Of a stretch of DNA of 64,000 bases, positions 17,507 to 46,707 are shown in pieces. This stretch comes from Isurus oxyrinchus. Lineage: Eukaryota. The notes under the pieces were generated by a model. The model saw nothing but the letters and a program-made list of their open reading frames with translations. It was not told the DNA's origin and searched no databases. Location: positions 108,686,001 through 108,750,000 of the forward strand of contig JANJGN010000007.1 of NCBI GenBank assembly GCA_026770705.1. Reading direction: 5' to 3'. Position 1 is the stretch's first letter. Every line of letters begins with the position of its first letter. The position numbers and the translations under genes were made by a program.

Positions 17507-17571
17507 GCGCTTGGCCTAAATAGCTTAAGTGGTTATGGTACTGGGCTTGAAACCCCCAGATCAAGAGTTCA
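17507..17571 (+). mobile_element. 5' half of a tRNA-headed SINE-like element (Tx1 target)
   Basis: A box TAGCTTAAGTGG (17521-17532), anticodon-like arm CTGGG..CCCAG, B box interrupted at GAGTTCA by Tx1. Preceded by TACATAAACAATT (17494-17506). Confidence 0.8.
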
Positions 17572-17639
17572 TCTTCTTAACGATCTTGTTGAGGCAATTG
17601 TGGATTCAGTTTGTTCCCTGATCCTGAGGAGAGAAGGTC

Positions 17640-17900
17640 TGTGGTGTTTTTGTTGCTGCTCCTCTTCAGTGTTTCAACTGTTTCTGCTGCTGCTTTTGGG
17701 GTTGTTGCTTCTGCTGCTGCCTTGCCCCTGTTTGGACCAAGAGGGAGAGAGGAACAACTGCTGCTGCTGCTTTGGGGTTGTTGCTTCTGCTGCTGTTGCT
17801 GCTTCTGCTGCTGCTCCTCCAGTGCTGCTGCTGCTGCTCCCTTGCCCTTGTGGTGCCAAAGGAGAGAGAGGGAGAGAAGAGAACAGTTGCTGCTATTGCT
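17640..17900 (+). repeat. (CTG/TTG)n-rich low-complexity tract with a duplicated subunit in the Tx1 5' UTR
   Basis: Runs of gctgctgct; ctgctgctgcttttggggttgttgcttctgctgctg and ccttgccc..gagaga..gaaca each occur twice. Confidence 0.85.
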
Positions 17901-18376
17901 ACAGGACAGGAAGGCCAGGAGGCCAGGACTGAGTTCAAAAACAACATCCTAGGTGGGTGTCTGAACTGTGTATTTTTGTTTAAGGTAGGGGCAATTAAGG
18001 ACTGTGTTTTGTAGGGGGAGGCAAGAAGACTGCCAGAGGGGTTGGGGAAGGAAGAGAGGGAGGGTGTGTGTGTGTGCTGAAACCATCTTTCTGCCACCCC
18101 TCCCCCAACCTAGCCCTTCCCGGTAAGGCCAGCAGTAGCTGGTGAAGACATCGCCTCCCCCTGCCTGAAGAACATCAGGCCCCCACACACCGTCCATCCA
18201 CCATCGAGGACACCCACCTGGACATTTACCTCTTTCCCTCCTGTGCCTCCCTGTCTTTTACTCCTCTCCCTCCTCTCCTCTCCTGCCTAAAAGAGGGGAG
18301 GTTGTTTCTACCTCTCTCCCCCACCCCCTTTCCTCCCCAGGGAGGAATACTAATATATATATATAAAAAAAACAAA

Positions 18377-20518: not shown

Positions 20519-20574
20519 AAAGTCCTCTTCTTCTTTTTAATTACTTAAGGTGAAGGTTTGATGTACCTTTGACA

Positions 20575-23500
20575 ATGAAGACGACTATAGCCAGCCTCAA
20601 CATCCGCGGCAGCAGGGGCGCACAGCGCAGGTTCCAGAACTTCTCGGTCCTCAGGGACGGGAAGTATGCGTTGTGCCTCCTGCAAGAAACCCATACTGTT
20701 CCGGGAGACGAAGCCACGTGGCTCCTGGAGTGGCGAGGGGGGATCTACATGAGTCACCTAGCCTCCAATTCTGGCGGGGTGGCTATCTTGTTGGCCCCAC
20801 ATTTTCAGCCGGAGATCTTGGGGGTCAAGGAGCTGGTGCCAGGCCGGTTGCTGCACCTGACTGTGCGTCTGGGGGGGGGCGGTGCTTCACTTCGTGAATG
20901 TATACGCTCCCCTGGGCACGCAGCAGCAAGCGAGCTTCTTTGAAGAAGTGTCCACTCATCTCGGCTCCATCGACGTTGGCGAGTGCATCGTCCTCGGGGG
21001 AGATTTCAACTGCACCCTCGGGGTCCGGGACTGTCACGGTACCCCGCACTGCACGCGAGGTGTGAGTAAGTTGCGGGACCTGGTCAGGTCCTTCGACTTA
21101 GTGGACGTCTGGCAAAATCTCCATCCTGACTCCAGCGTGTTCACCTTTGTGTCACCTGGAGTCGGAGCGTCCAGACTCGACCGCCTTTAAGTTTCAAAGG
21201 CGTACGTGTCCTGCGTTCCGGCTGCCTCTATACGGCAGGTTCCGTGCACGGACCACCGTCTGGTGTGGGCGGAGCTCACTTCGTTCTGCGCTCGGACGGG
21301 GTCCGCGTACTGGCATTTTAATAACCTGTTGTTGGAAGACCAGCGGTTCCTGGACTCGTTCCGTCGTTTCTGGGCCGGCTGGAGAAGGAAGCAGGGAGGC
21401 TTCCCCTCCTTGAGGCTATGGTGGGACGTGGGCAAGACTCACGTCCGAGTTTTCTGTCAAGAGTACGCGAAGGGGTCGACAAAGAGACGCAAATCCAGGG
21501 TCGAGGAGTTGGAGAAGGAGGTGCTCGACCTGGAGGCACGTCTCCATCAGCCTGATGCGGACCCGGCCCTGCGGTCGGTGTACGATGAGAAGAAGGGCGC
21601 GCTGCGGGACCTGCAATTGGTCGGGTCTCGGGGCGCGTTCGTGAGGTCGCGGATCCGGTTCCTCAGGGAGATGGACCGTGGCTCCCCCTTCTTCTACTCG
21701 CTGGAAAAAAGGCACGGGGTCCGTCAGCAGCTCTTTATGCTGCTGGCCGACGACGGATCCCTTGTCTCAGATCTGGAGGGCATCAGGGCCATCGCCCGAG
21801 ATTACTACACTGCCCTGTTCTCTCCGGATCCGTCTAGCGAGGACGCTTGCAGAGTTTTGTGGGAGGACCTGCTGCAGGTCAGCCCGGAGTGCGCCGGAAG
21901 GCTTGACTCCCCTATAAGTCTGGGGGAGCTGACCGGCGCACTCGACGGTCTTTCTAGGGGCAAATCCCCGGGACTAGACGGGCTGACCGTGGAGTTCTTC
22001 AGGGCGTTCTGGGACGTCTTGGGGAGCGACTTCGCGGGGGTCCTGGGGGAGAGTATCGCTACCGGGGAGATGCCCCTTTCGTGGCGCAGGGCCGTGATTG
22101 CCCTGCTGCCGAAGAAGGGGGATCTCCGCCTTCTTAAAAACTGGTGCCCGGTCTCCCTCCTCAGCACGGACTACAAAATCTTCGCCCGAGCCATGTCTTC
22201 CCGGCTCGGCACCGTGCTGGACCACATGATCCACCCTGACCAGTCCTACACCGTCCCGGACCGAACCATTTATGATAATATCCATCTGGTCCGGGACATC
22301 ATCCACTATTCCCAGAGGGCTGGTCTGTCGAGCGCCTTCCTGTCTCTCGATCAGGAGAAGGCGTTCGACAGGGTGGATCACGGATACTTACTCGGAACTC
22401 TGCGAGCGTTCGGGTTCGGGACGCATTTTGTCGCCCAGATCCGACTTTTGTATACCGCCGCGGAGTGTCTAGTGAAGGTTAACGGGTCCCTGACGGCGCC
22501 CCTTCGCTTTGGGAGAGGGGTACGTCAGGGCTGCCCCCTGTCTGGCCAGTTGTATTCTATTTGCGTGGAGCCTTTCCTGCGCCTCTTGCGGAGGAGGTTG
22601 CCGGGATTGGTCCTGCGCGGGCCGGGCATCGGGGTGGTCCTTTCGGCTTACGCCGATGACGTGCTCCTTATATTTAGTGACCCGGCTGACCTGCAGAGGA
22701 TGCGCGAGTGCCAGGAGGTCTACTCTGCCGCTTCTTCTGCCAGGATCAACTGCGGTAAATGTTCTGGACTCCTGGTCGGTCAGTGGCAGATGGATCCCCT
22801 ACCCGAGGAGCTCAGGTCTTTCACCTGGAGCAGGACCAGCCTCCTCTACCTGGGGGTCCATCTCTGCCCCGCTGAGGAATCCTGGCCGGCAAACTGGCAG
22901 GAACTGGAGACGAAAGTCACCGCTCACCTGCGGCGCTGGACAGGACTGCTCCGAGTGCTATCTTATCGAGGTCGAGTTCTGGTCATAAACCAGCTGATCA
23001 CCGCCATGTTGTGGTATCGGCTGGTCACTTTGACCCCTCCCCTGGACTTTGTCACAAGAATCCAGAGATTGTTAGTCGACTTCTTCTGGGACAAAAGATT
23101 GCACTGGGTCGCTGCCGAGGTTCTGAGTCTCCTGCTTAGGGAGGGCAGTCAGGCGCTAGTGTGCCTACGCACACAGGTGGCGACTTTCCGCCTTCAGACC
23201 CTGCAGCGATACCTCTACATTGAGCCTCCTCCTAGATGGTGTGCCCTGATGACGTATTTCTTCCATCAGGTGCACGGCCTGAATTATGACGTGCAGCTCC
23301 TGTTTATAGAACAGCTGGGCCTCGGTGGCTCCTTGCAGGCGTTGCCCATCTTTTACCAGGACCTGATCAAAGTCTGGAAAGTGGTCGCCTCACGACGCAG
23401 CTCTCCCCCGTCAGGAGTAGCGGCTATCGTCAGAGAGCCACTGCTCAGGAATCCGCCCCTCCGTCCCTTTCAGTGGTTGGCGGAGAGGAGGGCTGTGGCC

Positions 23501-24466
23501 GCAGGGGTGACCAGGATCGGGGACGTGCTGGGTGGTGGAGGACTGGGCTGGATGCTCCTGCAGGAGTTGGCGCGACGCGCGTCTGTGAGTGTCCAGGTCG
23601 CAGCCGATGCCATCCAAGACCTGAGAACGGTCGTGTTCGGACCCGACGTTATTTTGGGTCTTGAGGTGGTCCAGGTGCGCGGTGGTCTTCCGTCTGAACG
23701 TTCCCCTGTTCGGACAGAATTCCACATTGGCCCCAAGCCCCGAACCCTCCCTAGGGTGCTGGGGCCCCGCAATATGAGCCGCCTCGGGGACATGCCCTCC
23801 GTGCCTTTTAGCACAGCAAAGAGAGGCTTTTTGTACAGACTGCTGCTGCACACCTTCCATTTTCTAGCCCTTGTCCGCCGCCCGGACATGCCCTGGCGTG
23901 CCTTGTTGCCGTCCGGCGGTGGAGGCCCCCGATGGGAGGCCCTCTATGGAGGTGTCCTCCCCCTTTCTATCGGGGACCTGGGTTGGAGGGTGTTGCATGC
24001 AGCAGTCCCCTATAATAAGAGGATGCATAGGTTCACGGACTCTCAGGACACGTGCCCTTTTTGCGGTCTTGTGGAGTCCGTGGACCATGTATACATAGGG
24101 TGTTGTAGGCTGCACTCCCTTTTTAGTTATTTGAAAAACCTTTTATTGATGTTTTGTTTGCACTTCAGCCCCACGCTCCTGATCTATGGGCACCCGGTGC
24201 GGAAGGGGGTCGGGAAGGAGGAGGACCTCCTCGTGAACCTGCTCCTGGGCCTGGCCAAGTTGGCCATTAAAAGGTCCAGGCGGCGGGCGATCGACGGGGG
24301 AGTCCCGCCCGATTGTTTGTCCCTCTTCCGCGGCTACGTTCGCTGCCGGATGTCCCTGGAGAGGGAGCACGCGGTGTCTGCTGGCAGTCTCGAGGCCTTC
24401 CGTGCTCGGTGGGCACCGCGGGGACTGGGGTGTTTTGTTGACCCCTTTAATCACATTTTGATTTAA
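20575..24466 (+). pseudogene. Tx1 ORF2 (APE endonuclease, reverse transcriptase, C-terminal zinc finger), ~1296 aa when repaired
   Basis: APE motifs LQETH, GGDFN, RLDR, TDH. RT motifs LDQEKAFD, RQGCPLSG, AYADDV. Zinc finger CPFC..ESVDHVYIGC. +1 frameshift in the G9 run at 20871-20879 and TAA at 21188-21190; the remaining 1086 codons are open. Confidence 0.93.
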
Positions 24467-24575
24467 AGTTTGTAAGTTTCCTTTAAACTTTGTTCTTGGT
24501 TTTACAGCTGACCTGAATTAGGGGCTGTGCCTGATTTATCCCGATTTTGTTGATTTGGTTTTCATTTAAAAGATT

Positions 24576-24748
24576 ATCAAGAGTTCAAATCTCACAATGG
24601 CAAACTATGAAACACTAACTTCATCTGAAACAGATGGGAACGGGTTTGTACTCGAAAGAAATCAAGAGTTCAAATCTCACAATGGCAAGCTATGAAACAA
24701 TGTAACTTCATCTGAAACAGATGGAAACAGGTTTGTACTCGAAAGAGT
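24576..24748 (+). mobile_element. Two tandem copies of the SINE 3' half (24576-24660 and 24661-24748)
   Basis: Both begin ATCAAGAGTTCAAATCTCACAATGGCA (B box) and end GTTTGTACTCGAAAGA. They differ by ~4 substitutions and a 2-nt indel. Followed by TACATAAACAATT (24749-24761). Confidence 0.88.
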
Positions 24749-26429
24749 TACATAAACAATTATGTTCTCCGCATTATCAGGTCAGCAGTGGGACTGCTTG
24801 CCAATGATTGCACAGTGATCAGTTTTACTTGCAATTTCTCAAGTGTAGTTCATGTCTGCACATGCAAGATCTTGGACAATATCTAAGATTTGGCCGATAA
24901 TTTACAAGATTCATGCCATACAAGATCCAGGTAATCACCATCTCCAATATAATGGAGCCTAGCCAGTTCTCTTTGACTGGTAACCGAATTACAGTTGCAA
25001 AATTCACCACCGTCTTTGATCTGGAGGTAACCAGTGATTGCAACATGAACTGGAACAGCCATAATTGCTGTGGCCACGAAAGCATGTCAGAGACTGAGTA
25101 TTGTGCAGTGCCTAGCTCACCTCACGACTCCCCAAAGCTTCTATACCACTAAAAGGTGCAAGTCAGGAGCGTGATGGAAAATCCCCCACTTTTCTGGAAA
25201 GGTGCATCTGCAACAACATTGCAAAAATATACTTGGAGCTGTTCAAGAGACAGTTTGATTGAGCTCTGTATAACCTACTGGACTAAATATCTAACTTGAA
25301 ATAATTATCTCCAGGCGATAGTTATGAAGAAGTTTGAAAGCTTCAGATGTGTAGTACAAAGCACTTATATTAAAATGGAAACTGCAGCTGTTTTCCTTTT
25401 TGATGGATTGCAGTTAATTAAAACAATACAGCGAAGTATATTCTGACGTTTAACGCTTTCGCCGCAGGAAGAGCAGTTAAAATGAAAGTTTATTCTGGTA
25501 TCCTCTAATGGGAACTTCTGCTTTATCATAAAATCTCTTGAGAAGGAGCTGCTGTGCAATTTTTTTATTATTCGTTCTTCGCTAGTAAAGCCAACATGAT
25601 TTACACATGGCTAGTTTCCTGACAATGTGATGGTGCGTCTTTTTGAACCACTGGAATAGTAAATAGAAAATGGGACAATACCAAAATCAGCAGTTGTTGG
25701 CAGGCAGGTGAATTGCACCCATGTGACAAGGAGCCACTAGAAATGTAATGGGGCAATCTTCAATTTCCACTTGAGAAAGGGAAATATCTTTAGGCTCAGG
25801 CCTCATGCCAGTGGTGAGCTGCAGGTACCAAACAGTAAAATTGCTGCAGCTCGCCAGTTGCAAAACGGTAGGAAATCGGCCAGTTCCTATGCTAAGCACG
25901 AAGAGGTGAAGAAAATCTCAGGGGCCAGAGGTTGGTACTCACATAGCCAGACAAGGAACAGAATACTTTGGGTACAGGAAGTGCAAGCCTACTCTTCATG
26001 GGCTCACAAAAATAAAGATTAGAGATTTGTTGCATCGCATTTTCAGTGGCCTCCAATGGATAGTTAAAGGTTGGTCAACACATATAATGTGCATGTAGAG
26101 TGTCAGTGATGCCACACAATCAATTGCCTCACAAAATTACAACTGGGATTTTCAGTTTGGTGCAGGACCTTACTTCGCAAAGTCAGGAAACCTCTGAAAA
26201 CAGACAAGGCACCTGCTCAGCCATTTACAAGCCTACCTGAAAATTGAATCAGTTGCTGGTGTGCCTCTCGCAATTTCCATGTGAGAAACAGGCAGCTGAA
26301 AACCATTCCCAATATTTACACATGGGCAAAGCATAAGCACTTTTACACTAACACCAGCAGCTCTAATGTTGGAACTCGAAGCCTTTGCAAGTAACAAATG
26401 AATAGCTGCTAGGTAGGCAGTTGGGTTAT

Positions 26430-27478
26430 ACCTATCACCAAGAAAGATGCTTGTCCTTGTTGGAGATCAATCATCTCAGTTCCAGGACATCACTGCAGGA
26501 CTTCCTTAGGGTAGTGTCCTGGGACCAACCATCTTCAGCTGCTTCAGCAATTACCTTCCTTCCATCATAAGGTCAAAAATGGGGATTTTTGTTGATTGTT
26601 GTACAACGTTCAGCAGCACTCGCTACTCGTGAGATACTGAAACAGTGCATGCCCAAATGCAACAAGTCTTGGACAATATCCAGGCTTGGGCTGACAAGTG
26701 GCAAGTAACATTCGTGCCACACAAGTACCAGGCAATGACCATCTTCAACAATACAGAATCTATTTCCCCTTGACATTCAATGGCATTACCATTGCTGAAT
26801 CCCCCAATATTAACATCCTTTGGGTTTCTATTGATCATAAACTGAACTGGACTAGCCATATAAGTACTGTGACTACATCAGCATGTTGGAGGCTAGGAAT
26901 CCTGCGGTGAGTAACTCACCTTCTGACTCCTTAAAGTGAGCCCACATTCTACAAGGCACAGGTCATGAGTGTGATGGAATACTCCCCACTTGCCTGGATG
27001 TTTGCAACTCAAACAACACTCAAGATGCTTGACAGCATCCAGGACAATGCATCCCGCTTGAATGGCACTCCATACGCAAACATTCACTCCCTCCACAAAT
27101 GGAACAAGATGGCAGCAGTGTGAGCCATTCACAAGATACAATGCAGGAATTCACTGAGCCTCCATTGACAGTACTTTCCAAGTCCATCATCGCTGTTAAT
27201 TAGGACAAGTGCATGGGAACATGGAAACACCACACTTTTAGTCTCCCCTCCAAGCCAGTCACCACCCTGACTTTGAAATAAATCACCATTCCTTCACTAT
27301 TGCTAGGTCAAAATCCTGGAAATCCCTACCTAACAGCACTGTGGGTGTGCCTACATATCATGAACTGCAGCAGTTCAAGAAGGCAGGTCACCACCCCCTT
27401 CTCAAGAGCAATTCGGGATGGGCAATATATGCTGGCCTAGCTAGTAACACCCACATCCTTTGAATTAATTTTAAAAAT
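26430..27478 (+). mobile_element. LINE family B 3' fragment
   Basis: Colinear with 7240-8236; tail ctcaagagcaattcgggatgggcaatatatgctggcctagc. Confidence 0.88.
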
Positions 27479-28728
27479 GACAATCTACAGGCAGAAATTT
27501 AAGCCCCTCTACTGGCGGCTTAGCAGGCGAGGTTTGGCATGTAAAATTCCCTGGATGGCCTGTCTATCACCCTGACCTGTCCACCATTTTACAAGGTTGG
27601 TTAAGGCCTAAGCTATACCAGCCACCTTTGCTGCAATTGATTCCTAAGTGTGCAATTAATGACCTCTTATGGGCCATTTCCCACTAAGCCTCAATTTTGA
27701 GGCTAGCAGGAGGAACTCAGGGACAGGAGGGATGCCAGGCACGCCACCCTGCTCAGACATCTGGTGGGAAGGGGGAAGTGCCTCCTTCAACAGCCTCCTT
27801 TCCACATCAGGCCCTCCCCCTTGCCCTATGCCAAGGTTTGCCCACTGCTCTCTCACCGTTCTGGCATCTCCATTAAGACACCTACGTATCTCTCCCCAAT
27901 GCTCCAGGCCTCACCTCTCCAACCTGCTGTAACCAACTGTCCAGTATTTTAAGGGGCTGTCCCTTATTTTGTCTGTTTATCCCATGTCCCTTAAGGAACA
28001 CATTTTGTCCTTTAAATCTAGGATAGCCTGTGAGTTACTCAACCTGGGGATCTCCTCTTTGCCTGTCAGTTTTCTTCTCTGAGCATACGCCCATCACTGC
28101 CCACACCCTGCCTGCGTTCTTATGGTGACCAGAAGCCCCCACCCCAAGTCCTCAGATTCAAAGAGTACCTTAATTTATTTCATAAGATTTATCACATTGA
28201 CATGTAACCAAATACATTTACCTGGCCCTAGATTCCAGGGCCAGAATTTTCCCATTGGCATGCAGGGGGCAGGCCCCATATGACCACGTGTAAAATGATG
28301 AGTGGTCAAGTCGGGAGAGAATTCAGACGTCACCATGCGCCATCTCGATATCTCATTGGGCGGGCGCCTTCCGATGTGTGTCCGCCATTAATTATAGGGT
28401 CAATTTAGGCCCTTGAACTGTGAATGGACGGTGATTTTTCCGTGCCCGTGGAATCTTTGGGTCGGCGCATGGGCGCAATGCATTGGCCGGTAGGACCCAT
28501 TTGTAGAAACCTTATCCACGTGCGGGATAAGAGGGTTCAGTTGGGTCGCAAGTGTGCTCTGTCAAATATTGGTTTTTCAAAGTTACTGATATTTTCTAGT
28601 GTGATCTGCAATACCTCAATACACATACCAGCTGCTTTGTCTGGACTCATAACCTTCATGTCAGCACTCTGTCATGTGGAATCATTTTTGGGCCTGCAGG
28701 TTTCAGGGAGCCTTCTGTTAGCTTGTGA

Positions 28729-29800
28729 ATGGGAGCTGAACTCTGCACTGGAGTCACCTTCTTTGAGGAGGAAAGGAGGGCTAGAAGGGGGAAGAGGCCC
28801 AGAGTGTACATTCAGACTCCAGCAGAGCCTCCTTTGGGAGGATAGGTGCAGGCACAAGGGGTGCAGGACCAAGAAGTAGTCCAAGGCGGAAGGGGCCGCA
28901 GAAAATGCCACCATCCTGCTGCCAGGTTATACAGGCAGTGAAGCAGCTACGTCAATATGTCTGAGGTGCAGTGCTGAAGGAGGCTCTGTCCCTCAAGGCA
29001 GACAGTCAACTATATCTGTTAGATTATTGGGCCTGAGATCCCCATGAATTGTGTGGGTGAACACCTCATGCCAGTGGCTCTAAAGGTCACAACTGCCCTG
29101 AACTTCTATGCCTGTGTCTCCTTCCAGGAGTTGGCAGGTGATCTTTGCGGTGTCTCCTAATCAGCTGTCCACACTTCTGTTTAGGGGGTTGCTCACGCTC
29201 TGTTCAGGCGAGCATTGACCTTCATCCAATATCTCCAGGACCAGGTCAGCCAGAGGCTTGTCGGCGATTGCTTGGTTCTCCCGCATTCAGGGTGCAACAG
29301 ACTGAGCACATGTGTCCATCAAGGCACCAGCTGGTGAGCCCAGTGACTTCGTGAAAAGAAAGGGCTCCCCCTCCATGAACATGCAGCTCATGTGTGATCA
29401 CAGGATGCTGATTCTAGAAGTCTGTCCAAGACACCCAGGCATCTCCCATAATGTCTACATCCTTAGACACTCCCAGGTGTTAGGTTTCTTCAGTGCTCCA
29501 GCCCGGCTTGATGGATGCCTCCGGTGCCTGGGCTGTTGAGGGGGCCCACTCCAGTACCCCCCAGATCGACTGTCGCTGATAGTGGTTGCATGCTGCAATC
29601 TCCAAAATCTTGCGCTGGAAATGGGGGACACTGTGGACGATGAAGACATAGAGGGTGTGGCTGCACGATGTGTCCAGTAGTGAGTCCGAGGATGATCAGG
29701 CACAGGGATGTGCTGATGGGGGACACATTGACTCAGGCATACAGCATGGAGGCAGGGACCACAGGGAGGCTTTAATCCTACGACCCATCAACCAGCAAAC
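28729..29800 (+). pseudogene. Harbinger (HARBI1-like) DDE transposase, disrupted and internally deleted
   Basis: MPVALKVTTALNFYA..FQ..GDLCGVS; HVSIKAP..FVKRKGSPSMNMQLMCDHRMLILEVCPRHPGISHNVYILRHSQV; multiple stops and frameshifts. Confidence 0.85.
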
Positions 29801-30149
29801 CACGTATTGACCTCCAGGACAAGTCTGGGCTGCAGGCTCCATACTCGATACCTAAGTGCAAAATCTGCTTGATTAGGGACATTAACTAAGGGCCTTGTTA
29901 ATAGAGCTGAATGTCCCACAAAACACTCATAGCATTTTTAGACACCATCCACCTGTGGAAAAAAAGGTACCCTCAGCCGTGGTTACGTGTCTGAATTTAA
30001 CAGTACAACCAAAGGAATGTAACAAAACAAAATGACAGAGATGTTAAAATTCACACCAACTCCTAAGGACCTCATTGTTGGCCCACGCATAAACACCAGT
30101 GATAAAATCTTGGTGTACCGAAGGTGACATTTGTTTATGTTTTCGGGTG

Positions 30150-32428
30150 CTATGTCTTGGTGCTGACCCCCTCGCTGGGAGTGGCATCTGAGACAGCCTG
30201 CTGACGCTACTATCCTGTTGGCCTCGATGACCTTGGTGGTCAGCCTCTGGCCCATGGAGCCTGTGCTGGCCCCGCATAGTAGGGTGCAGCCAGTCGCACA
30301 GCTGGCATCTCCCCAATCCTCGTAGCATTATTGGATGCAACAGTCACTGGCAGAGGGGCAGAGGAGCTGCTGCCCTCATCCGGAGTGCCATGAGAGAAAC
30401 CTACAGAGATGACAGGCAGCTGTTGCACTGACATGAGGTTGCTTTGGACTTCCCTGCTCACCATGGATGGGCGGGCACCGAGCTGGGAAACTTGGTGCCC
30501 AAAGCATTTCCCATATTGTCAATGGCCAGCTGAGATAAATGCCAATGTGAAGGCTTGCTGGTCCAAGTGCTTTCCCAGGAACCCTAATTGACCTCCTCGA
30601 GGTCTGTCTCCATGACACTCGCCACTCCCTCTGTGGAAGATGCATGGCGCTTGGCCATGAGACTCATTGCTTCAGCGATAGTCTGCGTAGACTCCTCCAC
30701 CATGGACATGAAGCCAAGCATAGCCTCATGTATCTCCACCAGATGCTCTCACACACCTGACCACATTTTCTGCATTTGCTGCATCACAGACGACTCCAGA
30801 GGCACATCCTCAGGCACCAAATGTGCATACATGCCTCCTCGTGGCATCCAAGCCTCGCAAACACCGGTGGAACTGGGCGCATGGCGCCTTTCCAAATCTA
30901 GGACTTCCTTATGCTCTGACTGCTAGTGCCATGGCACTCTTTGTCTCTGCCAGCTCCTCCAGTGGCTGTGAAGTGTCCACACCACTGTGCCGTGGAACAC
31001 AAGCTGATGTTCTAATTCTCACTGAGGTGCTAATATCTGCGCTAGTGACTGCCTGACAGAGATCGTGTGTTGCTGGTGATTCCGTTACTTCAGGGCCCTC
31101 AGGTGTGAGATGGGGCCCGGACTGCTTCTCCTCCCGGCCCTGCTCCACTTTTGCTGAAAGGAGGAACAAAGATATTGGATCAGTTAACGTGGAGACCATG
31201 TTAATGTGCATCCCTGTCCCTCGGATAATTATGCACTCATCCTCCCATAAGCAAGGGTCAAACCATGTTGCAAATTTCAATCATGAAACATTCAGCACTG
31301 CCATGGCTGTTAAGAGGACAATGAAGATCTCACTGCTGGGCAAACATACCTGCTCGTGGCACCCCAGCCTCACTGACACCATGGACCTGGGTGCATGGTG
31401 CATTTCCAAATCTAAGGCCTCCTGCTTGAAGGAGCTGAGAATCACCAACTGTGCTGGGCTGCCACCAGCCCTCACCCACTCGGTGACATTATGTGCATTC
31501 TTCTCCTGAAAAGGGGAGAAGAGCATTAAATATTGCTGCTTGTACATGGACTCCCTCGCGGACAGCCAACCCCAACCAGAGAGGGACATTGCAGGGCCCC
31601 AGTATCTTTTCACCCTGCTGCTGCTGAACACTCACAGAAAGCTCCTTGGTCTGTACCCCCTCCGCTGGCCTCCTTGGCCAAATGCTGCCCATGTCACATG
31701 AGGCACCACACAGTCTAACCTTCCATAGCAAAGAGTTGCAAGCACGTGGCGCACGAGGACAGCAGATCAACCGGTGCCACACCACCTTGAAGCTTCTTGC
31801 CCAGCATGTCATCATCCTGACTTTGACCTGTCCTGGAGTTTCAGCACTGCGCCTAGGCGGAGCTCCTCCAGCTTGTCCCCAAAACAGTAATGTGGTTTTC
31901 AGTGTACCACGTGCTGAGGGGGCAGAACCCATCTCTCCACCACCCTGTCAGGGTAAGCCCGGCATGGGCAATATCTGCTGGCCCACCCAGAAAAGGACAA
32001 TGCCATCAATGATTAAATGCAGTCACTGCACTCAGACTTGCTGGGATTGAGGGGAGGGGGGGAAGTGGGGGGGCACGCGGAGTGGGATGGGGGTGGTGGA
32101 GGGGCTCCAGGGTGGAAAGCCTACCTGCAGGGTTACGTGAACAATGCCATTAAGGTACTCACCATTCCTGAGTGCAACAGATCGATGAAATGCTTGTGAC
32201 TGTGGATCCAGGTGCGCCATTCCAGGTTGTGGGAGCTCACTATCTCCTCCCAGGCACGCTTCGTCATGTGGGGTGGGGCTTCCTTCTCCCATCTTTGGGT
32301 CCAAGGACCTCCTCGAGGAGGGCACCGAGGCAATCATCAGGAAAACAGGGGGCACAGTGCCCCCCTGCCCTACAACCCTGCCTGGCCTGCTCACCAGCAG
32401 CGCCCTGTGGAGCCTTTCCAGTAGCCAT
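30150..32428 (-). pseudogene. Harbinger accessory Myb/SANT-like DNA-binding protein gene (spliced, degenerate)
   Basis: APCFPDDCLGALLEEV...TKRAWEEIVSSHNLEWRTWIHSHKHFIDLL, then a gtgagt donor near 32160; next exon begins EKNAHN near 31506. Confidence 0.75.
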
Positions 32429-33929
32429 GATTCACAACCTTTGAAAGGCTGCAGCAACTTTTTAAAACAGGCCGCTGGGTCACCATTGGACCCGGCGGTC
32501 ATTTCAGTCCCCCTGCCGCCCGCCTACTCCTGCTGCCCTCAGGAGCCGCGATTTGCCCGCCCCTGTACAATGACTGCACTGATCTGATTTCGGGCGGCAA
32601 TCAGGTCCGTGCCTACCCGCTCCCGCTCTGCCCCCCCGACAGGCAGAAAATCTTGCCCCATGACTTTGAAATCTGGGGCAGCTTTTAATTCTAGTCTTGG
32701 CCACTACTGCTGCTGGCACCAGTGGGACTACAGACCTGCCAGCTAGAGGACCATTTCCCTAGTGATGTTTTGGAAACCCATTTCCAGTTAATTAATGCTC
32801 CTTTGAGCATTAAATGGCTGCGGGCCAGCCTGGATTGGCAGGGTGTAATTTTCAGATGGCAGAGCAGGAAATCTCACCATTTGAAAAAACCTGGCCAATG
32901 GTCTTCCTTTGTAACAATGAGTAGAATTTTCCAAGCCCCCTGGCAGCAGGCATGATAGGTGGTGTGCGTGGAAAATACGGCGGGACCCACTTCACGATGG
33001 CTTGAAGTTCGCAACATCGGATGGCGGGGAGCTAATTGTAATGCATTAACATATAATTAACAGGCCATCCCGCCAGGCTCTTGGAACCCTGCCACACCTA
33101 TCTACGTCGGTGGGAAAGCACACTGAAGTGTTTCAGAACATCACGCAGGGAATATCCACTTTGCGGCCCTCACTTTGGGGGACCTGAGGTGCGTGAGCTG
33201 TAGCATTCTCCACAGCTCAGCGGTTGTTTACAGGCCTCAGGGGCGCGGGGCCGGGAGGTGGGGGAAACTGTTGCCTGGCCCCGCAGGCTGCTGCTGAGGG
33301 GTGGTGGTGTCTAGAGGCAGGTGCTGATCAGCCTTGGAGGTGACTGCTTAGGGGAGGGGGTCAAGTGCTGCACTGGCACAGCATTCTGCACAGTGGTTGG
33401 TGGCAGGGTAAGCGAGGGAAGTGGCCACACATTAGGGAGACCTGTATAAAATGACCATGCTACTGCAACTTAGACAGATCAGGCGCAGCCTGATTGGAGC
33501 CAAGTTCCTAGCCTGCCCAAACATGCAAGCAACATGGAGGCATGAACGGGCCACCTAGCACTCCATACCTTACCGTCCACCCCCTGCCTGCTAACCCCCC
33601 ACCACAGGCTTTGAGCCAGTAAAGCCACCACTAAATTGGACCGCAGAGCAGTTGGACTGCAAACGCTGTACAATCTTCTTGGCAATGCTTGCCATGCAGC
33701 AATCACTTGTGGAGGCACTCACGGCCCATTGTAATCTCTGCACCCTGGTTTGGACCAGTGCCACCTATCGCAGGTTGATGGGGCTCACACATCCCTGGCC
33801 ATCTGAGGGGTAAACAGCACCCTCTGGAAACCATTAGGGGGTGGCCTCATATGGCCAGGAAAGGTGCTAAGTACAGCCATGATAACCACATCTCTCTCTC
33901 TTTTGTGTTGCATGTGGGCCACGTCAGGA

Positions 33930-35165
33930 TCATGCATCTGTTGCCCTAGCTGCATACCTGATGGCCTACAAAGGTTGTAGAAGACAGTGATGAGAGCGAA
34001 TGGGGCACCTGGCTGTGTAAAGGCAGGAGCAGCAGCCTCATGAAGAAGGGGCAGCAAACTGCCCAAGATTGACAGTGAGTCTTGGTTGGTCGGTGTCTAG
34101 AGACACATAGGGTCTGTAGCCATCTGCCATTCCTGCAGATGACTGAGAGCCTGTGTCGTCGACGGCTGAGCATGTCTAGGGACCTGGTGGCTCACACTTG
34201 TCACTTACTGCAGGACTTGGCTCCAAGGGGACTTGGAAGGCATCCACTGCCAGTGGCTGTGAAAGTGGATGTGGCGTTCAATTTCTCTGCCAGTGGCCCC
34301 TTTCAGCATTCTATAAGTGACCTCTGTGGGATTTCACAATCTGCCACCACAAAAATTCATCCATGAGTTCACGGAGTGCATCTTGTCCATGGCACACAAC
34401 TTTGTACATTTTGCCCGGGACTGGGACAGCCAGAATGCAAAGGCCATTGGATTTGCCATGATCTTTGAATTCCCATGGTTGCAGGGTGCGAATGACTGCA
34501 CTCATGTGGTGTGCAGGTCTCTATCACTACACTCAGTGGGTTTAATCAACCACAAGGGCTTCCACTCACTGAATGTGCAGCTGGTACGTGACCACCAGAA
34601 ACACATCCTGCAGATCTGCGCACGGTTTCTAGGGAGTGTGCATGATGCCTACATCCTAAGTTGCTCGCAGATCTCTGCAGTCTTCTAAGGTCCACAGCAG
34701 CTGCAGAATTGGCTCCTTGGTGAAAAGGGCTACATACAGATGCCATGGCTTATGACATCCATGCAGCGGCCTCAGACTGTAATAGAGCGAGGCTATAATG
34801 AGGCTCATGCAGCAGCTTTATTTGGTTGGAGCAGACCATCGGGATGCTGAAGATGTGATTCTGGTGACTGGACCGGTCTGCTGGAACCCTGCAATACAGT
34901 CCGCAGAGGGTATCACGCCTTGTTGTTGCCTGCTTTGCCCTTTACAAATTGGCCCTGCAATGGGGTAAGGAGCTGGCTGTGGAGGAGATGGAGGAACTGT
35001 AGGTTTTCTTCAATGAGGAGGACACTGACGGGGATGAGAGTGAGTGGGCCCTCGGTCATGATGACGATGGGGATGAAGCTCTCACCCTGGCTAGATGAGG
35101 CAGGTGCTCTAGGGAAGCCCTCACAGCTGCCAGCTTTGTGGAGGACGATGGCAAAATGCAGTGAG
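33930..35165 (+). pseudogene. Harbinger DDE transposase pseudogene
   Basis: [43 protein letters not shown]; LQGANDCTHV..NHKGFHSLNVQLVRD..ARFLGSVHDAYIL; WLLGEKGY..PWLMT; EQTIGMLK; acidic tail. Confidence 0.9.
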
Positions 35166-35727
35166 GTGTCCTCGTAGGTCCTCACATCGCAGTCGTGAAT
35201 GTTTGACTCCAGTCTATCTTTTTGCAGCGCCAATACCCTCAATGAGAATGCTCTTGTCATGGAAATGAGTGAAGGCCCTAATTGTCGCTCGATCGCAGGG
35301 GGATAATGACAACATGCATTGAGGACATTCCTTAGATCTTCACATGGCCTCTGAGAATGTCTGACTCCTGTCTAGCCAAGAGCAGCTCACTTGCACTCCA
35401 TGATCAGGAACAAATAAGACTTGGCTTGCACAGAGTGAGAGGAGAAAATGTGGCTGTCATTGGTGAAATAGATGAAGAAACAGATTCTGCAAGAGATTTG
35501 GGAAATATCAGAGCTGAACCTTGAAATTCTGTGGTACACTGAACCACGAAAGGACTTTATGAATGCATGGGTGTTATTGAGGAGAGTGGGAAACTTTTAC
35601 GGCAGTGCATGTAGGAAATTTGATGTCCGAAGGATGAAATAATATTTCTGATTTGAATATTTTTATGCCTTTGTAGTTTTGAATATGTGCATAAATATTT
35701 TTTAAAACTTGAGCAAAATGTTTAATT

Positions 35728-37447
35728 CTCTGGAAGAGATTGGCAGGATTGGACTTCAGGGTGGTCCTCTCGGCTAATGCCGGTGACATGCTTTTCATAT
35801 TCACTGACCTGGCTGAGCTGTGGAGGATGCACGAGTACCAGGAGGTTCACTCTGCCACGTCCTCTGCCAGTAGCAACTGGGGCAAATATTCTGGATTCCT
35901 GGTTGGTCAGCGGTAGATGGATCCCTGCCCGAAGAGATCAGGCCTTGCACCTGGAGCAGGACCAGCCTCATCAACCTACATGTCCATCCCTGCCTTGCTC
36001 AGGAATCCTGGTCTGCGCAATGGCAGTAGCTGGACACCAAAGTCACCATTCACCTGCAGTGCTGGACAGGCTTGCTCCAAATGCTTTCTTACCGGAGCTG
36101 AGTTCTGGTCATAAACCAGCTGGTTGCCACTGTGCTGTGGTACTGGCTGGACATATTGGCCCCGCCCCCAGACATTGTCACGAAAACCCAGGGAATGCTC
36201 GTCGACTTCTTCTGGAGCAAAGGCTGCTGAGGTTCTGTGCCTCCCACTTAGGGAGGGCGGTCAGGCGTTGGTCAGTGTGAGCACCAGGTGGCGACTTTCC
36301 ACATTCAAGCCCTGCAGTGATACCTTTATGTCGAGCCCACACTAAGATGATGTGCCCTGGTGACGTATTTCTTCCATCAGGTGAAGGCCTGAATTATGAC
36401 ATGCAGCTCCTGTTTGTGGACTAGAGGGCCTTTGTGGCTCCTTGCAGGCGTTGCCCATCTTTTAACAGTACTTGATCAAAGTCTGGAACATGGTCACCTC
36501 GTAACACAGCTGTGCCATTAGGTGTAGAGCCTATCGTCAGAGAGCCGCTTCTCAAGAATCCACCCTCTGACCTTTTCAGTGGCTGGCAGAGAGAAGGGGT
36601 GTGGCTGTCAGGGTGACCAGAATCAGGGACATTCTGGGTGGCGGAGGTCTGGGCCGAACGCTTCCATAGGAGCATCGTGCTTCCGGCTCGTGGCCAATGC
36701 CATTCATGACCTAAGGGCAGCCGTGTTTGGCCCCAATGTCATCCTGGCTCTCCAAGTGGCCCAGGTGTGTGGTGCTCTTCTGTCTATGCATACCCCTTTT
36801 TGGATGGAATTCCACATTGGCCTCAAGCCCCGAACGCTCCTTCGGGAGCTGGTGCCCTGCAACCTGTGTTGCCTCATGGAAATACCCTTCATGACCTTTA
36901 GCACGGTGCAGAGTGGTTTCCTGTATGGACTGCTGCTGCACACTTTTCACTGATTTGCCCTCACCTGTTGCTCGGAAACGTCCTTTCATGCCTTGTTGCC
37001 GTCAGGAAGTGGAGTCTCACAGTTGAGGTTCTCTACAGGGGTGTCTTCCTGCTTTCCATCAGGGAACTAGGGTGGAGGGTGTTGAATGCAGCAGTCTCAT
37101 ACAGCAGCAGGTTGTGTCAGTTCACGGGCTCCCAAGACACCTGCATCTTTTATGGCCTTGTGGGTCCATGAACTATGTATATATAAGGCTCTGTAGGCGG
37201 CACCATTTTCAGTTTCCTGAAAAAACTTTTACTGTTGTTTTGTTTGCACTTCAGTCCCAAGCTCCTGATTTACGGGCACACATTGCAGGAGGAAGGAGGA
37301 CATCCTTGTAAACCTGCTCCTGGGCCTGGCCAAGTTGGCCATTATACCTTTGTCTTTAATTTTTTACATTTTCCCTAATTTGGGGAGATGTATTTATTTT
37401 GTCCTCAATTTTGTTAATTTATTTTATTTGGTTGACTCAAAAGTGTT
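35728..37447 (+). mobile_element. Old 5'-truncated Tx1 copy A (3' part of ORF2 plus 3' UTR)
   Basis: Colinear with 22590-24270 of the young element; T-rich tail ending TTGGTTGACTCAAAAGTGTT. Confidence 0.88.
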
Positions 37448-37450
37448 AAT

Positions 37451-39372
37451 CCTCTGGAGGAGGTTGCACGGGATTGGTTCTGCAGGGGCCACGGTGGTCC
37501 TCTTGGCTAACACCGATGACATGCTGCTCATGTTTACCAACGTGGCTGACCTGCAGAGAATGCTCGAGTGCCACAATGTCTACTCTGCTGCATCCTCTGC
37601 CAAGATCAACTGCAGCGAATGTTCTGGACCCTTGGTCAGTCAGTGGCAGATGGATCCCCTACCCGAGGAGCTTAGACTTTCACCTGGAGCAGGACCTGCC
37701 TCTTGTGGCTGGGGGTCCACCTCTGCCTTGCTGAGGAATCCTGGCCGGCAAACTGGCAGGAGCTGGGGACTAAAGGTGCCACTTACCTGCAGCGCTAGAC
37801 AGGACTGCTCCAAGTGCGGTCTTACTGTGGCCGAATTCTGGTCATAAACCAGTTGATTGCTACCATGCTGAGGTACCAGTGGGTCACTTTGACCCCTACT
37901 CTGGACTTTGTCACAAACATCCAGAGAATGCTCATCAACATCATCTGGGACAAAAGGCTGTTCTGGGTCGCTGCTGAGATTCTGAGTCTCCCGCTTAGAG
38001 ATGACACTCAGGCGCCGTTGTGCCTGCGACTTTCCACCTTCAGGCCATGCAGCGGTACCTTTACATTGAGCTCCCACCGAGATAGTGTGCCAAGGCGACG
38101 TATTTGGTACTCCAGCTTCATGGCCTGGAATATGATGTGCAGCTCCTGTTTGTAGACCTGAGGGGCCTTCGTGGCTCCTTCCAGGTGTTGCCTGTCAATT
38201 ATCAGGGCCTCATTAAAGTCTGGAACGTAGTCGTCTCACCACGCAGCACTCCACCATCAGAAATAGCGGCTATCATCAGAGAGCCGCTGTTGAGGGATCC
38301 ATTCCCGCTTCCATTTCAGTGGCTGGGAGAGAGGAGGGCATTGGCTGCCATGGTCACCAGGTTTGGGGATGTGCTGGTGGAATGGGCTGGATGCTACAGG
38401 AGGAGTTGGCGCATCTTGCACCTGTCGATGTCCGGCTCATGGCCAATACTATTCATGACCTTAAGTCGTTCTTGCTCTACCCCGACATCGTCCTTGGTCT
38501 CAAGGTGATGCTGCTACATGTTGGTCTTCTGTCTGAGCTTACCTTTGTTTCCAAGCAATCCCACATAGCCCCAAGCCCAGAACCCTCCCTCAGGAGCCAG
38601 CGCACCGCAACCTCAGTCGACTCGCAGAAATGCCCTCCATGTCCTTTAGCACAGCGTGCAGGGTTTACTGTATGGGCTGCTGCTGCACACTCTTCACTTC
38701 CTTGCCCTCACTCGCTGCCCAGACATGCCTTGGCATCCCTTGTTGCTGTTGCATAGCGGAGGTCCACAGTGGGGTGTCCTCTACAGGGGTGTCCTCCCAC
38801 TTTCTATCAGGGAACTGGGGTGGAGATTGTGGCACGCAGCAGTCCCATACATCTGTAGGTTCTGTCGATACCTGCATCTTTTGCAGCCTTGTGGAGTCCA
38901 TGGACTATGTTTATATAAGATGTTGTAGGCTGCACTTCCGTTTCAGTTTCCTGAAAAACATTTTGTTGATGTTTTGTTTGCACTTTAGTCCCAGGCTCCT
39001 GATTTATGGGCACCCGGTTCAGAGGGGGACCTGGACGGAGGAGGACCTCCTCATGAACCTGCTTTGGGCCTGGCCATTAACAGATCCAGACAATGGGCGG
39101 TCAAGGGGGTCATCCAACCTGAATGTCCTTCTTCCATGGCTATGCCCGCAGCTGGTGTCCCTGGAGAGGGAGTATGCAATGTCTGCCGGCACCATTCTTG
39201 TAGGGCAACGCAGGGACTGGGGTATTTTATTGACGCCCCTAAGTCACATTTTGGTTTAATGTTTGTAAGTTTCCTTTAAATTTTGCCTTTTTTAACAGTC
39301 TTCCTAATTTAGGGGCTGGGTTTATTTTGTCCCTCATTTTGTTAATTTAGTTTAATTGGTTGACTCCAAACA
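37451..39372 (+). mobile_element. Old 5'-truncated Tx1 copy B
   Basis: Colinear with 22590-24570 (degenerate YADD read as ANTDD); tail TTGGTTGACTCCAAAC. Confidence 0.9.
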
Positions 39373-42300
39373 AGTTATTTCTCCCTGATTGGTCTCAGAA
39401 GCATCTCGTTGCTACTGCAGGTTTCGTTTGTTGCTTCCTGTGGTTCTGGCTGCTGTTTTGTTGCTGCTCTGAGATTTCCTTCTGGTTGTTCCCACTGCTT
39501 TTTTTCTGTGTCTGTCCCTGGATGCTATGGGCTTTCCTTATGGCTGTTCCTACTGTGTTATTCCTGTAGCTCTATTTCTGTAGCTTTATTTCTGCTGCTG
39601 TTCTTGCAAGGCCAGAGACATGAAGAATTGGAGGAGAGAGGGGGAGAGAGAGGAAGTGCTGCAAGGCAGAGAGACAGACAAGGTGCTGCAAGGCAGGGAT
39701 GCCAGGAAGCAAGGAGTTTTTCATTACACCTGGGGTAGGTGTGTAGACTTCTGTTTGGTCAGGTCTGTGAAAATCGTGGTACTCTGCAGGTGGAGGAAGA
39801 AGAATGTGAAGTGACCCGCGGAGAAGGGGTGTTTGCATGTGTGTGCATTTAAGATCTTGCACCACTCTCTTACCCTTCTTGCCCTGCCCGTTACCAAGTC
39901 CAGGTAGCAGGTGCTGCCTGCTGAACATGGACGGACCTGACTTCCATTTGCCAGGCAGTACCCGCTGTATAGTGAAGACATTGCCCTCCCCCTATGGGAA
40001 GGACAGCTAAGCCACCACCACCCCGCTCCACTCCACTCAGCGACACCTGCCCACCCTGCACCCATTACCCCTCCCCTTCTTTGCCACTCTAACTTTTCCC
40101 CTCTCTCTCTCCTCCCCTTCCACTTTTCTAAACCATCAGGATGGAGATTGTAATGTTTTGCCATCTTCCCCTCTATTAACGCTGTTGCCACCAACAACAG
40201 GGCTCAGGGCGGGTGTGACTCATCCCTTAATGGCTGCCGTGAGGTCACTGGTTGCCGGGCTCTCTGGGGCAGCTGTGCAGGTGGCTATATCACCAGTGGT
40301 GGGGCCCGCCAAGAAGATCTATGCGGGAGTGACTGTTTCGGTGGCCTCCATTACTCCCGCGGCCCCATCACCATTCCGCCTCCTGACCAGGGCCATGGAG
40401 GTAATGGGTTGCATTCACCCTGAGATGACTGTGGAAACATGTGTGAAGGCTTTGGCCGGGGTTGTCAGCCCTTCGGCCATTGTTGTGCCTGCACCCATGT
40501 ATGGGAATGTGCTGTTCTTCCTGAGGCCATAGTGGGCGGTACACCTGGCCCTGGCCAAGGGGTTCACTGTTGGCAGGACCTATCTGGCGTTGGATCCCCT
40601 TGAGGCCAATCTGGAGAGGCTGGCCTTACTCAGCGCCCCATCATTCATTCCCGGTGAGCTCCTCCTTTCCCACCTTCACAACTTAGGGAGGACAGGTCTG
40701 GGGTGGTGCCGATCCCTCAACCTCAGGGAACACAGTCTCCAGCACATGTGCTCCTTTAGAATCAGGGCTTTCTTCACCTGGCCCAGGAGAAGTGTGCAGA
40801 GGGGCGTTTGGATGTCACCTTTGAGGGGGCCGCATCCCATGACTTCCAGTTGGCAGATGGCGTGTGGTACCATGCTTGCAAGTCTGACAGGGCTGCCCCA
40901 TCCCAAAGGCCATCAGCACCACCCAGGCAGCCACAGCTATCACCACCTCTCCTCCACGCGCCACCATGCCATTTTGCTCCCCGCAAGGTTGACCTTGAAG
41001 AAGCAGACCCCCTGATTCCCCAGAATCCCAAAAACCTCTCTGAACCAAGAACACTGATGATACCAGCTTGGGGGGAAATAAATCATTTGGCCCTGGCGTC
41101 ATGTCCGCACATGCTCCCGGGCCTGTGTGCACCTGAACACCATCTTCTGCACCCAGCATCATCCCTGCACGGATTCCCAGGTCTGGCGGCAATGGGACTG
41201 GTGGCCTCAAGGTGGTGGTCTTGTCAAAAAGGGTGGACGTGCCAAAACCCTGGAATTTGGAGCATCCAGGAGGGCTTGGTGACGCGATAGGGTCCTAAGC
41301 TCGCAGCCTACCCCAGAAGAGATGTCACCCCTCAGAGAGGGAGGATCTTCTGACTCATGAGATTGAACATTTCCCCACCCCAGTGAAGAGGTTGTGGCAT
41401 TTCCAGCCCAAAAGTCCTTGCCCTGTCCTCTGGGGGAGTCAAAACCTCCATTCCTTCACTGCGCTCCCCTGAGGGCCCCTTCGGGGTTGGTGAGGGTACC
41501 GCCTTCACCGTGATGCCCTACCCCAACCCACCTTGTACCCATGAGAAGCCATATGGCCTGCCAGGCGAAGAGGAGGGCCTCCCTGCTCCATCTCAGCCCC
41601 TGGAGCCGGATGCTACAGTTCTGCGCCCGGAACTTGTTCCAGATTTGCTTGTTGACCCGGTGCCTGAGGCGGAGCGAGTCTCTGAACTGCTGCCACCCTC
41701 TGACCTGGAAACCTGAGAGGAAACCAGAGATGATCCCTCTGCCTTTGATTTTGGAGGTGGGATCGAAGCAGAGGTAGAGCCAGCTGGCAGCTCCAAATCA
41801 GCCGCTGCACCCCATGGTGTGGTCAGAAACTGGAGGCAACGACCCAGAAGATGATGGGTGCTGATACCGAGAACCGCCAACGACCTTGTTAGTTGGAGCC
41901 AGGTGAGGTGATGCGGGCTTTGGTGTCTGCTGTTGACTCCCCCTCTTCCCCATTGGGGAAATTTGGGGTTCTTTGGTGATTAATCTCATCCGCTGAGGCA
42001 GGATCTAGTTGGCCTTGGGCCAGTGGCATTCGTGTATGTTGGTGTTCTGGCTAATCTGCCAGGCCCTAAAAGCCCCTGAGTTGGACTGGAATACCGGCAA
42101 AGGGTCCTTGCATTTCTCACGGGGCTCCTGAAGGAGAGGGAAACTTAAAAAAGTCCTCCCCTTCTTGCACTTATTGAGGGGTGATGGTAGCACATATTAG
42201 TGATAATGAAGGCTACCATAGCTAGCCTGAACCCCAATGGCAGCAGGGACACACAGCACAGGTTCCAGAATGTCTCAGTTCTCAGGGACAGGATATATGC

Positions 42301-44495: not shown

Positions 44496-44499
44496 AGTG

Positions 44500-45800: not shown

Positions 45801-46707
45801 CGGCTGGGGTGATGGCGAGCGGGCGCATGAGAGCCTGCCTGTCATCGAAATAGCGTGTCTCGTGGGATTAAATATATAATGAGGTTCGCTCAGGAAGAAA
45901 AAGCGCGAATTCCCGTCATTTTCATCAGCGGGTAGGACTCCATTTTACGCGCCCGCTACTGTATTAGTTCAATTCTGGAAAAATTCAACCCAATGTATAT
46001 AACAGAGTTGTAAATTAAATAGTGTGATGGGGACTCAGGTAGGAATGGAAATTCCAGTCTCGATCACGTGCTTGTACTCTATTAGTTATCATCAACTACA
46101 ACTTACCTCAGCATTTCCGGCTCCAGAGTGGTTACACAAACAGATCGGGTCCATCTGTCAATTTCTATAGACTGACCCCATTTTAGAAAGTGCATGGCTA
46201 TGCATACCAGCTGTGATGACACTCAGGGAGTAAATAGTCTTAGTGATGAAAATTCCACCACTGGGGTGATTTAACAGACATGCTGTGGCATGAGATAGTA
46301 TGGAAAATAGTGAACAGGAAAATAATTCTGAAAGTAGGTTTTCATCAAGTATGTTTCAGAATTGAAAGCGGCTTTTCTTTTTGCATATATTATAGGTTGA
46401 TCAGATATTCATTAACTTTTAGTATCAGGTCAGTATTCCAAAATAAGAAGTAGCAAAAACTTCTGAGGGACTATTTAATGCAACCAATAAACTGGTGTGA
46501 CTTGCTGTGCTGTACTTCATCATTTATACATTTTCTAAACAAAGGAGTTAATTATATTTTTATCATATTTTACCTCAATTACCATAACAGTATCAGACAG
46601 AAGTACATATTTGGAACACAGTAATATAATAACAAATAATATTTGGTGCAGGATAACAGTATAAATAACTTACAACTGACAGTCACTGGAATATGAAATT
46701 AATAAAA

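Follow-up and report, generated by a model that had tools for sequence, protein, structure and literature searches.

Can a retrotransposon that takes a short interspersed element (SINE) as its landing site also copy that same SINE? This question is raised by a locus of Isurus oxyrinchus, analysed here as a window of 64,000 nucleotides (nt) (assembly GCA_026770705.1, contig JANJGN010000007.1, positions 108,686,001 to 108,750,000 of the forward strand). In this window a young full-length Tx1 element of the Tx1L lineage (17572..24575, +), a 7-kb retrotransposon without long terminal repeats, splits a SINE with a transfer RNA (tRNA)-like head and is bounded by a target site duplication (TSD). A first-pass annotation of the window had proposed, from the likeness of their 3' termini, that the two elements are reciprocal partners, with the SINE supplying targets and Tx1 supplying mobility. 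Our results suggest that the Tx1 reverse transcriptase (RT) is probably able to start on RNA that ends at the SINE terminus. What points to this is a doubled SINE tail behind Tx1, which the first-pass annotation overlooked, which is stronger evidence than the terminal match, and which we regard as the observation most worth following.

The SINE tail is present twice downstream of Tx1. Unit 1 (24576-24660, +) is the extra copy, likely transduced or copied in trans; it starts with the TSD and stops 3 nt or less short of the SINE end. Unit 2 (24661-24749, +) is the host copy and begins exactly at the Tx1 cut position. Both units begin at the first base of the Tx1 TSD, and the 12-bp sequence ATCAAGAGTTCA, whose 5' copy (17560-17571, +) overlaps the SINE B box, therefore occurs three times (17560-17571 = 24576-24587 = 24661-24672). 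There is no flanking homology at these three copies, which are preceded by G, T and A, respectively. Moreover, the Tx1 insertion signature is present at the junction between unit 1 and unit 2, which has additional A's. Both breakpoints fall at the observed places in only 4 of 7,503 possible internal duplications (18 if some slack is allowed). Slippage at AAGAGTT, a sequence common to the B box and the SINE end, was rejected as the origin of the doubling, since its expected product differs from the observed junction.

The two tail units are 93% identical, their 5 differences in 86 nt being 4 substitutions and one 2-nt indel. Tx1 carries just 2 disablements in ~5.7 kb. When decay was simulated under an assumed mutation model, so few disablements were obtained in 0 of 400 runs at 3% and in 11% of the runs at 1%, and an age of Tx1 beyond about 1% decay is unlikely under this model. 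With mutation again modelled by assumption, the probability that local decay produced 5 differences between the units is P = 0.003 at 0.5% and 0.04 at 1%. Tx1 is thus too intact for the 5 differences to have accumulated in place, which argues that unit 1 is no local copy made at the insertion; it would derive from another SINE copy or predate Tx1. Note that Tx1 and the SINE both look young at this locus, with perfect TSDs and an observed/expected CpG ratio of 0.63 in Tx1, against 0.25 in the background.

The doubled tail could have arisen by 3' transduction, by integration of SINE RNA into the Tx1 site at an earlier time, or by an RT that switched its template from SINE RNA to Tx1 RNA. Each of these three routes presupposes that the Tx1 site was cut and that reverse transcription began at the SINE terminus. 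Transduction is favoured because both breakpoints then follow from a single event. We give an even chance to the proposal that the Tx1 RT reverse-transcribed an RNA ending at the SINE terminus into the Tx1 cut site, the most likely way being 3' transduction from a donor Tx1 embedded in another copy of the SINE. Tx1 RNA without a poly(A) signal would read through the TSD into the tail of its host SINE, and the Tx1-like SINE terminus would become the start point for reverse transcription. The endonuclease would then cut a new SINE at the same site, generating the order head-TSD-Tx1-donor tail-TSD-host tail. An AATAAA-type poly(A) signal is absent from the 3' untranslated region (UTR) of the young Tx1 and from both SINE tail units. 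Under the transduction model only, the 7% divergence of the tail units implies that other SINE copies exist. Free SINE RNA, if it ended in this motif, could likewise serve as a substrate in trans, and this would make Tx1 the leading candidate for the partner long interspersed element (LINE). That Tx1 mobilises the SINE in this way has, in our estimate, slightly less than an even chance.

The young element is, by its sequence, a member of the Tx1 clade (Tx1L lineage), with an N-terminal APE endonuclease plus RT, a zinc-knuckle open reading frame 1 (ORF1) and the corresponding RT grouping. ORF1 (18377-20518) is intact and encodes 713 aa, with a zf-CCHC match at E=0.004 that is below the cut-off. 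ORF2 (20575-24466) carries the two lesions, one frameshift (~20875) and one stop (21188-21190). It contains an RVT_1 domain (E=8.7e-35) and an Exo_endo_phos match below the cut-off (E=0.0046). Its endonuclease region is 47% identical to Tx1L aa 1-106, and ORF2 as a whole shows 50% identity to Xenopus Tx1L across 99% of the 1,091 aa queried. The RT clusters with Tx1L with support 100/100, beside P0006, P0007, P0025 and P0013, in a tree whose 17 rows were all taken from the ORF2 homologue matches and do not include a named Keno, Kibi or L1 outgroup.

The host SINE is flanked by its own TSD (5' copy at 17494-17506, +; 3' copy at 24749-24761, +), the two copies being identical over 13 bp, or 12 bp if counted from 17495. 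The similarity of TSD lengths remarked on previously (12 bp for Tx1, 12-13 bp for the SINE) is therefore correct. About 40 nt upstream of the SINE insertion, the stretch 17444-17463 (+) has CAAGAGTTC in common with the Tx1 target (p = 0.04, post hoc). The tRNA-like head (17507-17559, +) contains an A-box-like motif (17521-17532), called with a relaxed box pattern, and a B-box-like motif in unit 2 (24668-24676) corresponds exactly to the B-box pattern. Counted with a single tail the SINE is ~142 nt long, and it is non-coding. As already annotated, it carries no poly(A) or tandem-repeat tail. No Rfam tRNA or small nuclear RNA (snRNA) match was obtained with the split SINE halves at the gathering level, the chance matches having E values of 3.8-8.6, and ARAGORN called a tRNA on the SINE empty allele only at the 70% threshold, where background calls appear too. 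SINEBase defines tRNA SINEs as elements of <700 bp that are non-coding, TSD-flanked and carry A/B boxes, with >=60% identity over >=60 nt to a tRNA and >=100 copies per genome (PMC3531059). Judged from its sequence, the element is a short, non-coding, TSD-flanked one with A/B boxes. Further copies of the SINE in the window do not stand out from shuffles (best score 36, shuffled maxima 27-38); a weak minus-strand match at 58400-58800 was a post hoc choice and was left out of the count. In bacterial and archaeal genomes, a 23-nt stretch of the SINE had 0 exact matches, and of 104 pattern matches 0 were confirmed as Tx1 relatives.

The likeness of the termini involves the last 20 nt of tail unit 2 (24730-24749, +), the 3' end of the young Tx1 (24555-24575, +), which is set by its TSD, and the ends of two old 5'-truncated Tx1 copies, A (35722-37447, +; terminal motif 37428-37447) and B (37448-39376, +). 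The sequences quoted in the first-pass annotation are all present in the window, at the positions it gave for the SINE and copy A, but the end of copy B lies at 39356-39376, one base further on. We compared end-anchored global scores with those of 31,890 control 20-mers taken elsewhere in the window. The SINE end resembles the Tx1 3' junctions, as had been claimed, and does so beyond chance: only 7 (copy A), 30 (copy B) and 152 (young Tx1) of the controls score as well. If the Tx1 end is given a freedom of +/-4 nt, 10 (A), 14 (B) and 70 (young) of 10,630 controls do so (p ~1e-3 to 7e-3), and the ungapped identity of the young Tx1 end and the SINE end (12/17) is equalled by 50 of the 31,890 controls. 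Note that these p-values are post hoc and that A, B and the young copy are homologous, so they amount to roughly one test. Where the SINE has CG, CA is found in copy A and TA in the young copy, the pattern expected from CpG decay (read by eye). In an unanchored test, which copy B and the young copy likewise fail, the last 20 nt of the SINE had no match among 14 other retroposon ends of the window (p >= 0.36); 1 of the 14 gave p = 0.04 against the 89-nt SINE tail (uncorrected), and the 'CR1-like' ends among them are ends of aligned stretches and possibly not true termini. The caveat that the match is short was justified: it covers 17-20 nt, and upstream of it at best 20-22 of 69 nt are identical at any offset. 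As far as alignment can tell, the shared stretch is real, although a classical LINE-derived tail would be far longer. It reaches p ~1e-3 post hoc and is partly possible TSD, and the SINE terminus would look like a Tx1 3' junction whether it is a tail recognised by the RT or absorbed target sequence. A likely origin of the motif would be a Tx1 3' junction, made up of the element end and target sequence, that the SINE captured.

A number of results weigh against a partnership of Tx1 and this SINE. The TSD-flanked site of the SINE is unlike the young Tx1 target (p = 0.54), as the first-pass annotation had itself cautioned, and p = 0.054 when four junction motifs are summed; the site resembles the B|C junction of the old copies alone (p = 0.003, one of four tests) and agrees with the Tx1 signature in TSD length only. 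The best-matching Tx1 copies, A and B, lie in a Harbinger-like element and not in the SINE. A second SINE in the window, which has an L2-like tail, resembles the Tx1 target over a stretch at its B box (21/25 nt, ~59270), and Tx1 targets may come from SINEs that Tx1 does not move. With its last 3 nt removed, the terminal match falls to p ~0.02 for A and for B and to 0.003 for the young Tx1. The left 11 nt of the motif are not significant by themselves (p ~0.09), and an unanchored 60-nt local test is significant for A only (A 0.004, B 0.07, young 0.19). The shared block is 17-20 nt long, compared with ~100 nt at ~65% identity in the other SINE/LINE pair of the window. Moreover, when the ends were folded, the SINE terminal hairpin was not significant (z = -1.5) and was not formed in the Tx1 ends, and a conserved stem-loop common to both was not supported. 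Finally, all of this concerns a single SINE copy and a single event.

The strongest of the rival explanations, which we consider rather unlikely, is that another LINE generating long TSDs, RTE or L1, moves the SINE, that Tx1 merely targets the B box, and that the terminal match is a coincidence. Unit 1 would then be an ordinary read-through transduction that ended by chance at the end of the donor SINE. The dissimilar SINE site, the weakness of the short match after trimming and the B-box stretch of the L2-tailed SINE, which indicates that Tx1 may not need the present SINE, speak for this explanation, and RTE-driven SINEs also give long TSDs (~17 bp in hagfish, PMC7245038). However, a transduction that stops at the SINE terminus still means that the Tx1 RT used that end, and the anchored match has p ~1e-3. 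Furthermore, the SINE has neither the poly(A) of L1 nor the microsatellite tail or upstream T-run of RTE. The RTE signature requires an upstream T-run plus a TSD starting with T (PMC6007223), and no thymine run was found upstream of the SINE TSD, though this TSD can begin with T.

Another possibility, which concerns the old copies and which we hold to be quite improbable, is that the shared motif is target sequence: the old copies would end ~10 nt earlier, the repeats at the LSM8, A, B and C junctions would be TSDs, and the SINE end would be a second target-like or primer-annealing sequence. The old copies form a tandem array within a Harbinger-like DNA transposon remnant (32919-45991, approximate bounds from inverted-repeat-like ends), which has a DDE_Tnp_4 match (E=7.7e-7 at 34317-34685) and no Pfam match for its presumed Myb remnant. 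Copy A adjoins a 5'-truncated LSM8 processed pseudogene (35405-35715, +), consisting of the end of the coding sequence and a presumed 3' UTR (PDB LSm8, E=6.5e-14). Copy C (39377-44497, +), which follows B, has a 5' UTR, ORF1 and an ORF2 with an internal deletion, and has lost its 3' end. The three copies are ~75% identical to the young Tx1.

The ends of A and B are not defined by a TSD, and MAFFT registers their last ~10 nt with the young Tx1 TSD in 3 of 3 settings, the pairwise scores for this register being 26 vs 20 and 21 vs 19. Further points that count against Tx1 ownership of the motif are that its right half recurs at the LSM8|A junction (J1; 35708-35727, +), where it follows LSM8 and not Tx1, and that J1 and the A|B junction (J2) each resemble the young pre-insertion target (p ~0.009). 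J1 and J2 have the right half in common (18 of 31,890 controls as good). Because the right half also precedes copy A behind LSM8, it may be the TSD of the old family and not Tx1 sequence. The common 5' breakpoint of A and B is expected from a TSD-mediated duplication, and annealing of downstream target RNA aids R2Ol (PMC6795142). On the other side, the young copy, whose end is defined by its TSD, still matches the SINE end (12/17), the whole of J1 does not (p = 0.65), and by their informative sites (16 vs 24 vs 16) A and B are not each other's closest relatives. Note that reading the motif as a TSD is partly compatible with transduction of the SINE tail.

Regarding the array itself, A and B begin at one ORF2 point (young coordinate ~22590; ~35722 and ~37452 in the window). 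Their mutual identity (72%) does not exceed that of either one to C or the young copy, and with star-like divergences of 72-77% a late tandem duplication giving A and B was rejected; an early one is possible. A Tx1 3' UTR ahead of copy A was also rejected, since the sequence is LSM8 and the upstream 120 nt gave p 0.07-0.55. The LSM8|copy A joint is either a template-switch chimera or a messenger RNA inserted at the Tx1 target. Even on the weaker reading, the locus suggests that RT of the Tx1L lineage copied both a SINE tail and a cellular messenger RNA (LSM8). The old Tx1 3' ends (37413-37436 and 39341-39364) can fold into a 7-bp stem with a 10-nt loop, no stabler than shuffles, and in both the GGTTGAC part of the motif is the 3' arm of this stem.

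A duplication at the DNA or subfamily level (a quasi-dimeric SINE) that preceded the Tx1 insertion and had no connection with it is very improbable as the source of the doubled tail. It accounts for the 7% divergence, AAGAGTT is present in both the B box and the SINE end, and a class of quasi-dimeric SINEs that contain internal duplications has been described (PMC3531059), so that the doubling could predate Tx1, but the left breakpoint coincides exactly with the Tx1 cut, and the junction differs from the microhomology product.

Does Tx1, by copying the SINE, also multiply its own targets? A putative targeting pattern is seen at only two loci, as three junctions at one SINE bond and as the tandem old array with its recurring junction motif. 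The half of the original proposal in which Tx1 can copy SINE RNA gains support, mainly from the extra diverged tail joined at the Tx1 cut, but the half in which Tx1 reciprocally seeds safe-haven SINE copies does not: the SINE site does not look like a Tx1 target, A and B sit in a Harbinger-like element, and half of the motif is possibly target. We consider unlikely a closed loop in which the B box of a tRNA SINE is the target of a Tx1 whose endonuclease loop is shortened and which also mobilises that SINE through the shared 20-nt terminus, so producing and multiplying its own harmless landing sites; reciprocity between Tx1 and the SINE in general seems to us doubtful.

The endonuclease bears on this point. 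The Tx1L endonuclease nicks its own target almost exclusively (PMC1950540), and a stringent enzyme would therefore nest SINE tails and not found new loci. Events on target would add tails within SINEs that are already present, as at this locus, and new SINE loci are predicted to need relaxed, off-target cutting, perhaps permitted, although this is speculative, by a shortened endonuclease loop. In the young Tx1 the beta-hairpin loop (21143-21172, +) has 8 residues between the T and S anchors, and that of copy C (within 42600-42960) likewise has 8. Among the 72 homologues with the pattern, the loop has 11 residues in 71 and 12 in 1; Tx1L has 11, which is a typical Tx1L trait and not a criterion of the clade. 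Since this hairpin loop has been implicated in endonuclease selectivity (PMC1950540), the 8-residue version could, as a guess, mean altered or relaxed cutting specificity. This loop, together with the off-target copies of the crocodilian SINEU family, softens the objection that Tx1 would only nest tails.

Tx1-mobilised SINEs are already known from SINEU, inferred to be mobilised by Tx1-Mar (Kojima 2015, PMC4494074). Of these, 358/1,548 SINEU-1 and 39/297 SINEU-2 copies are on the Tx1 target, most copies lying elsewhere (PMC4494074). As in our locus, SINEU and Tx1-Mar combine a SINE presumably moved by Tx1, tandem insertions sandwiching the TSD and, in their case, many off-target copies. In contrast, SINEU has snRNA (U1/U2) heads and poly(A) tails, whereas the present SINE is tRNA-like without poly(A) or an snRNA match. 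Moreover, a LINE with the 3' end of SINEU-1 was not found, unlike the terminal motif that the present SINE has in common with Tx1, and the target there is a third element, Mariner-N4_AMi, and not the SINE itself. Several Tx1 families target other transposons, namely Tx1L (target Tx1D), Tx1-Mar and Tx1-9_AMi (Harbingers) (PMC4494074). Like Xenopus Tx1L and crocodilian Tx1-9_AMi (PMC4494074, PMC1950540), the Tx1 elements of this window are inserted in other transposons, the old array in a Harbinger-like element, the likeness to Tx1-9_AMi being one of published description. The young Tx1 differs from Tx1L in its target, a SINE B box, and in its loop of 8 rather than 11 residues.

With the shared-tail pairs HE1/HER1 (sharks) and SINE2-1_CM/CR1-2_CM, the locus shares the resemblance of SINE and LINE 3' ends, but over 17-20 nt, compared with ~100 nt in the tobacco TS pair (PMC3747384). 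In the table rows of that article the shark and fish SINE partners include HER1 and CR1/L2-type elements, and Tx1 is not named in the table. Transduction of 3' sequence has been described for L1 and R7Ag (PMC7265360), and as in the read-through of L1, R7Ag and R2Ol, downstream flank would be carried or used by the element RNA (PMC7265360, PMC6795142); here, unlike in those cases, the flank that is carried would belong to the targeted SINE, as its tail, and each event would add a further TSD-bearing half target. In the literature searched, which excluded subscription papers and Repbase reports, no Tx1 both targeting and mobilising a tRNA SINE was found, and neither was a SINE that is both target and cargo.

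Target-specific retrotransposons normally rely on targets that they do not make themselves, such as ribosomal DNA, snRNA genes, microsatellites and DNA transposons. If the loop were true, a LINE that inserts into and copies the same SINE would build its own niche. It would be a case of feedback between transposons, and a route by which target specificity and SINE tails arise together. The 8-residue loop is a natural variant that bears on how the loop sets specificity.

Finally, the window holds other repeats, and its repeat types suggest DNA of a cartilaginous fish. The second SINE-like element (59240-59596, +) shares its ~100-nt tail with LINE remnants whose ends lie near 27464 and 49625. This tail, which served as a positive control, is ~65% identical to the two L2-like LINE ends, with 0 of 2,000 shuffles as good. 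A separate Harbinger-like element (28236-32659) has inverted-repeat-like ends and no blastn similarity to the host element of the Tx1 array. An inverted repeat (9644-10740), with arms of ~360 nt that are 73% complementary, surrounds a SINE-like copy (10088-10323) and is possibly a miniature inverted-repeat transposable element with a nested SINE.

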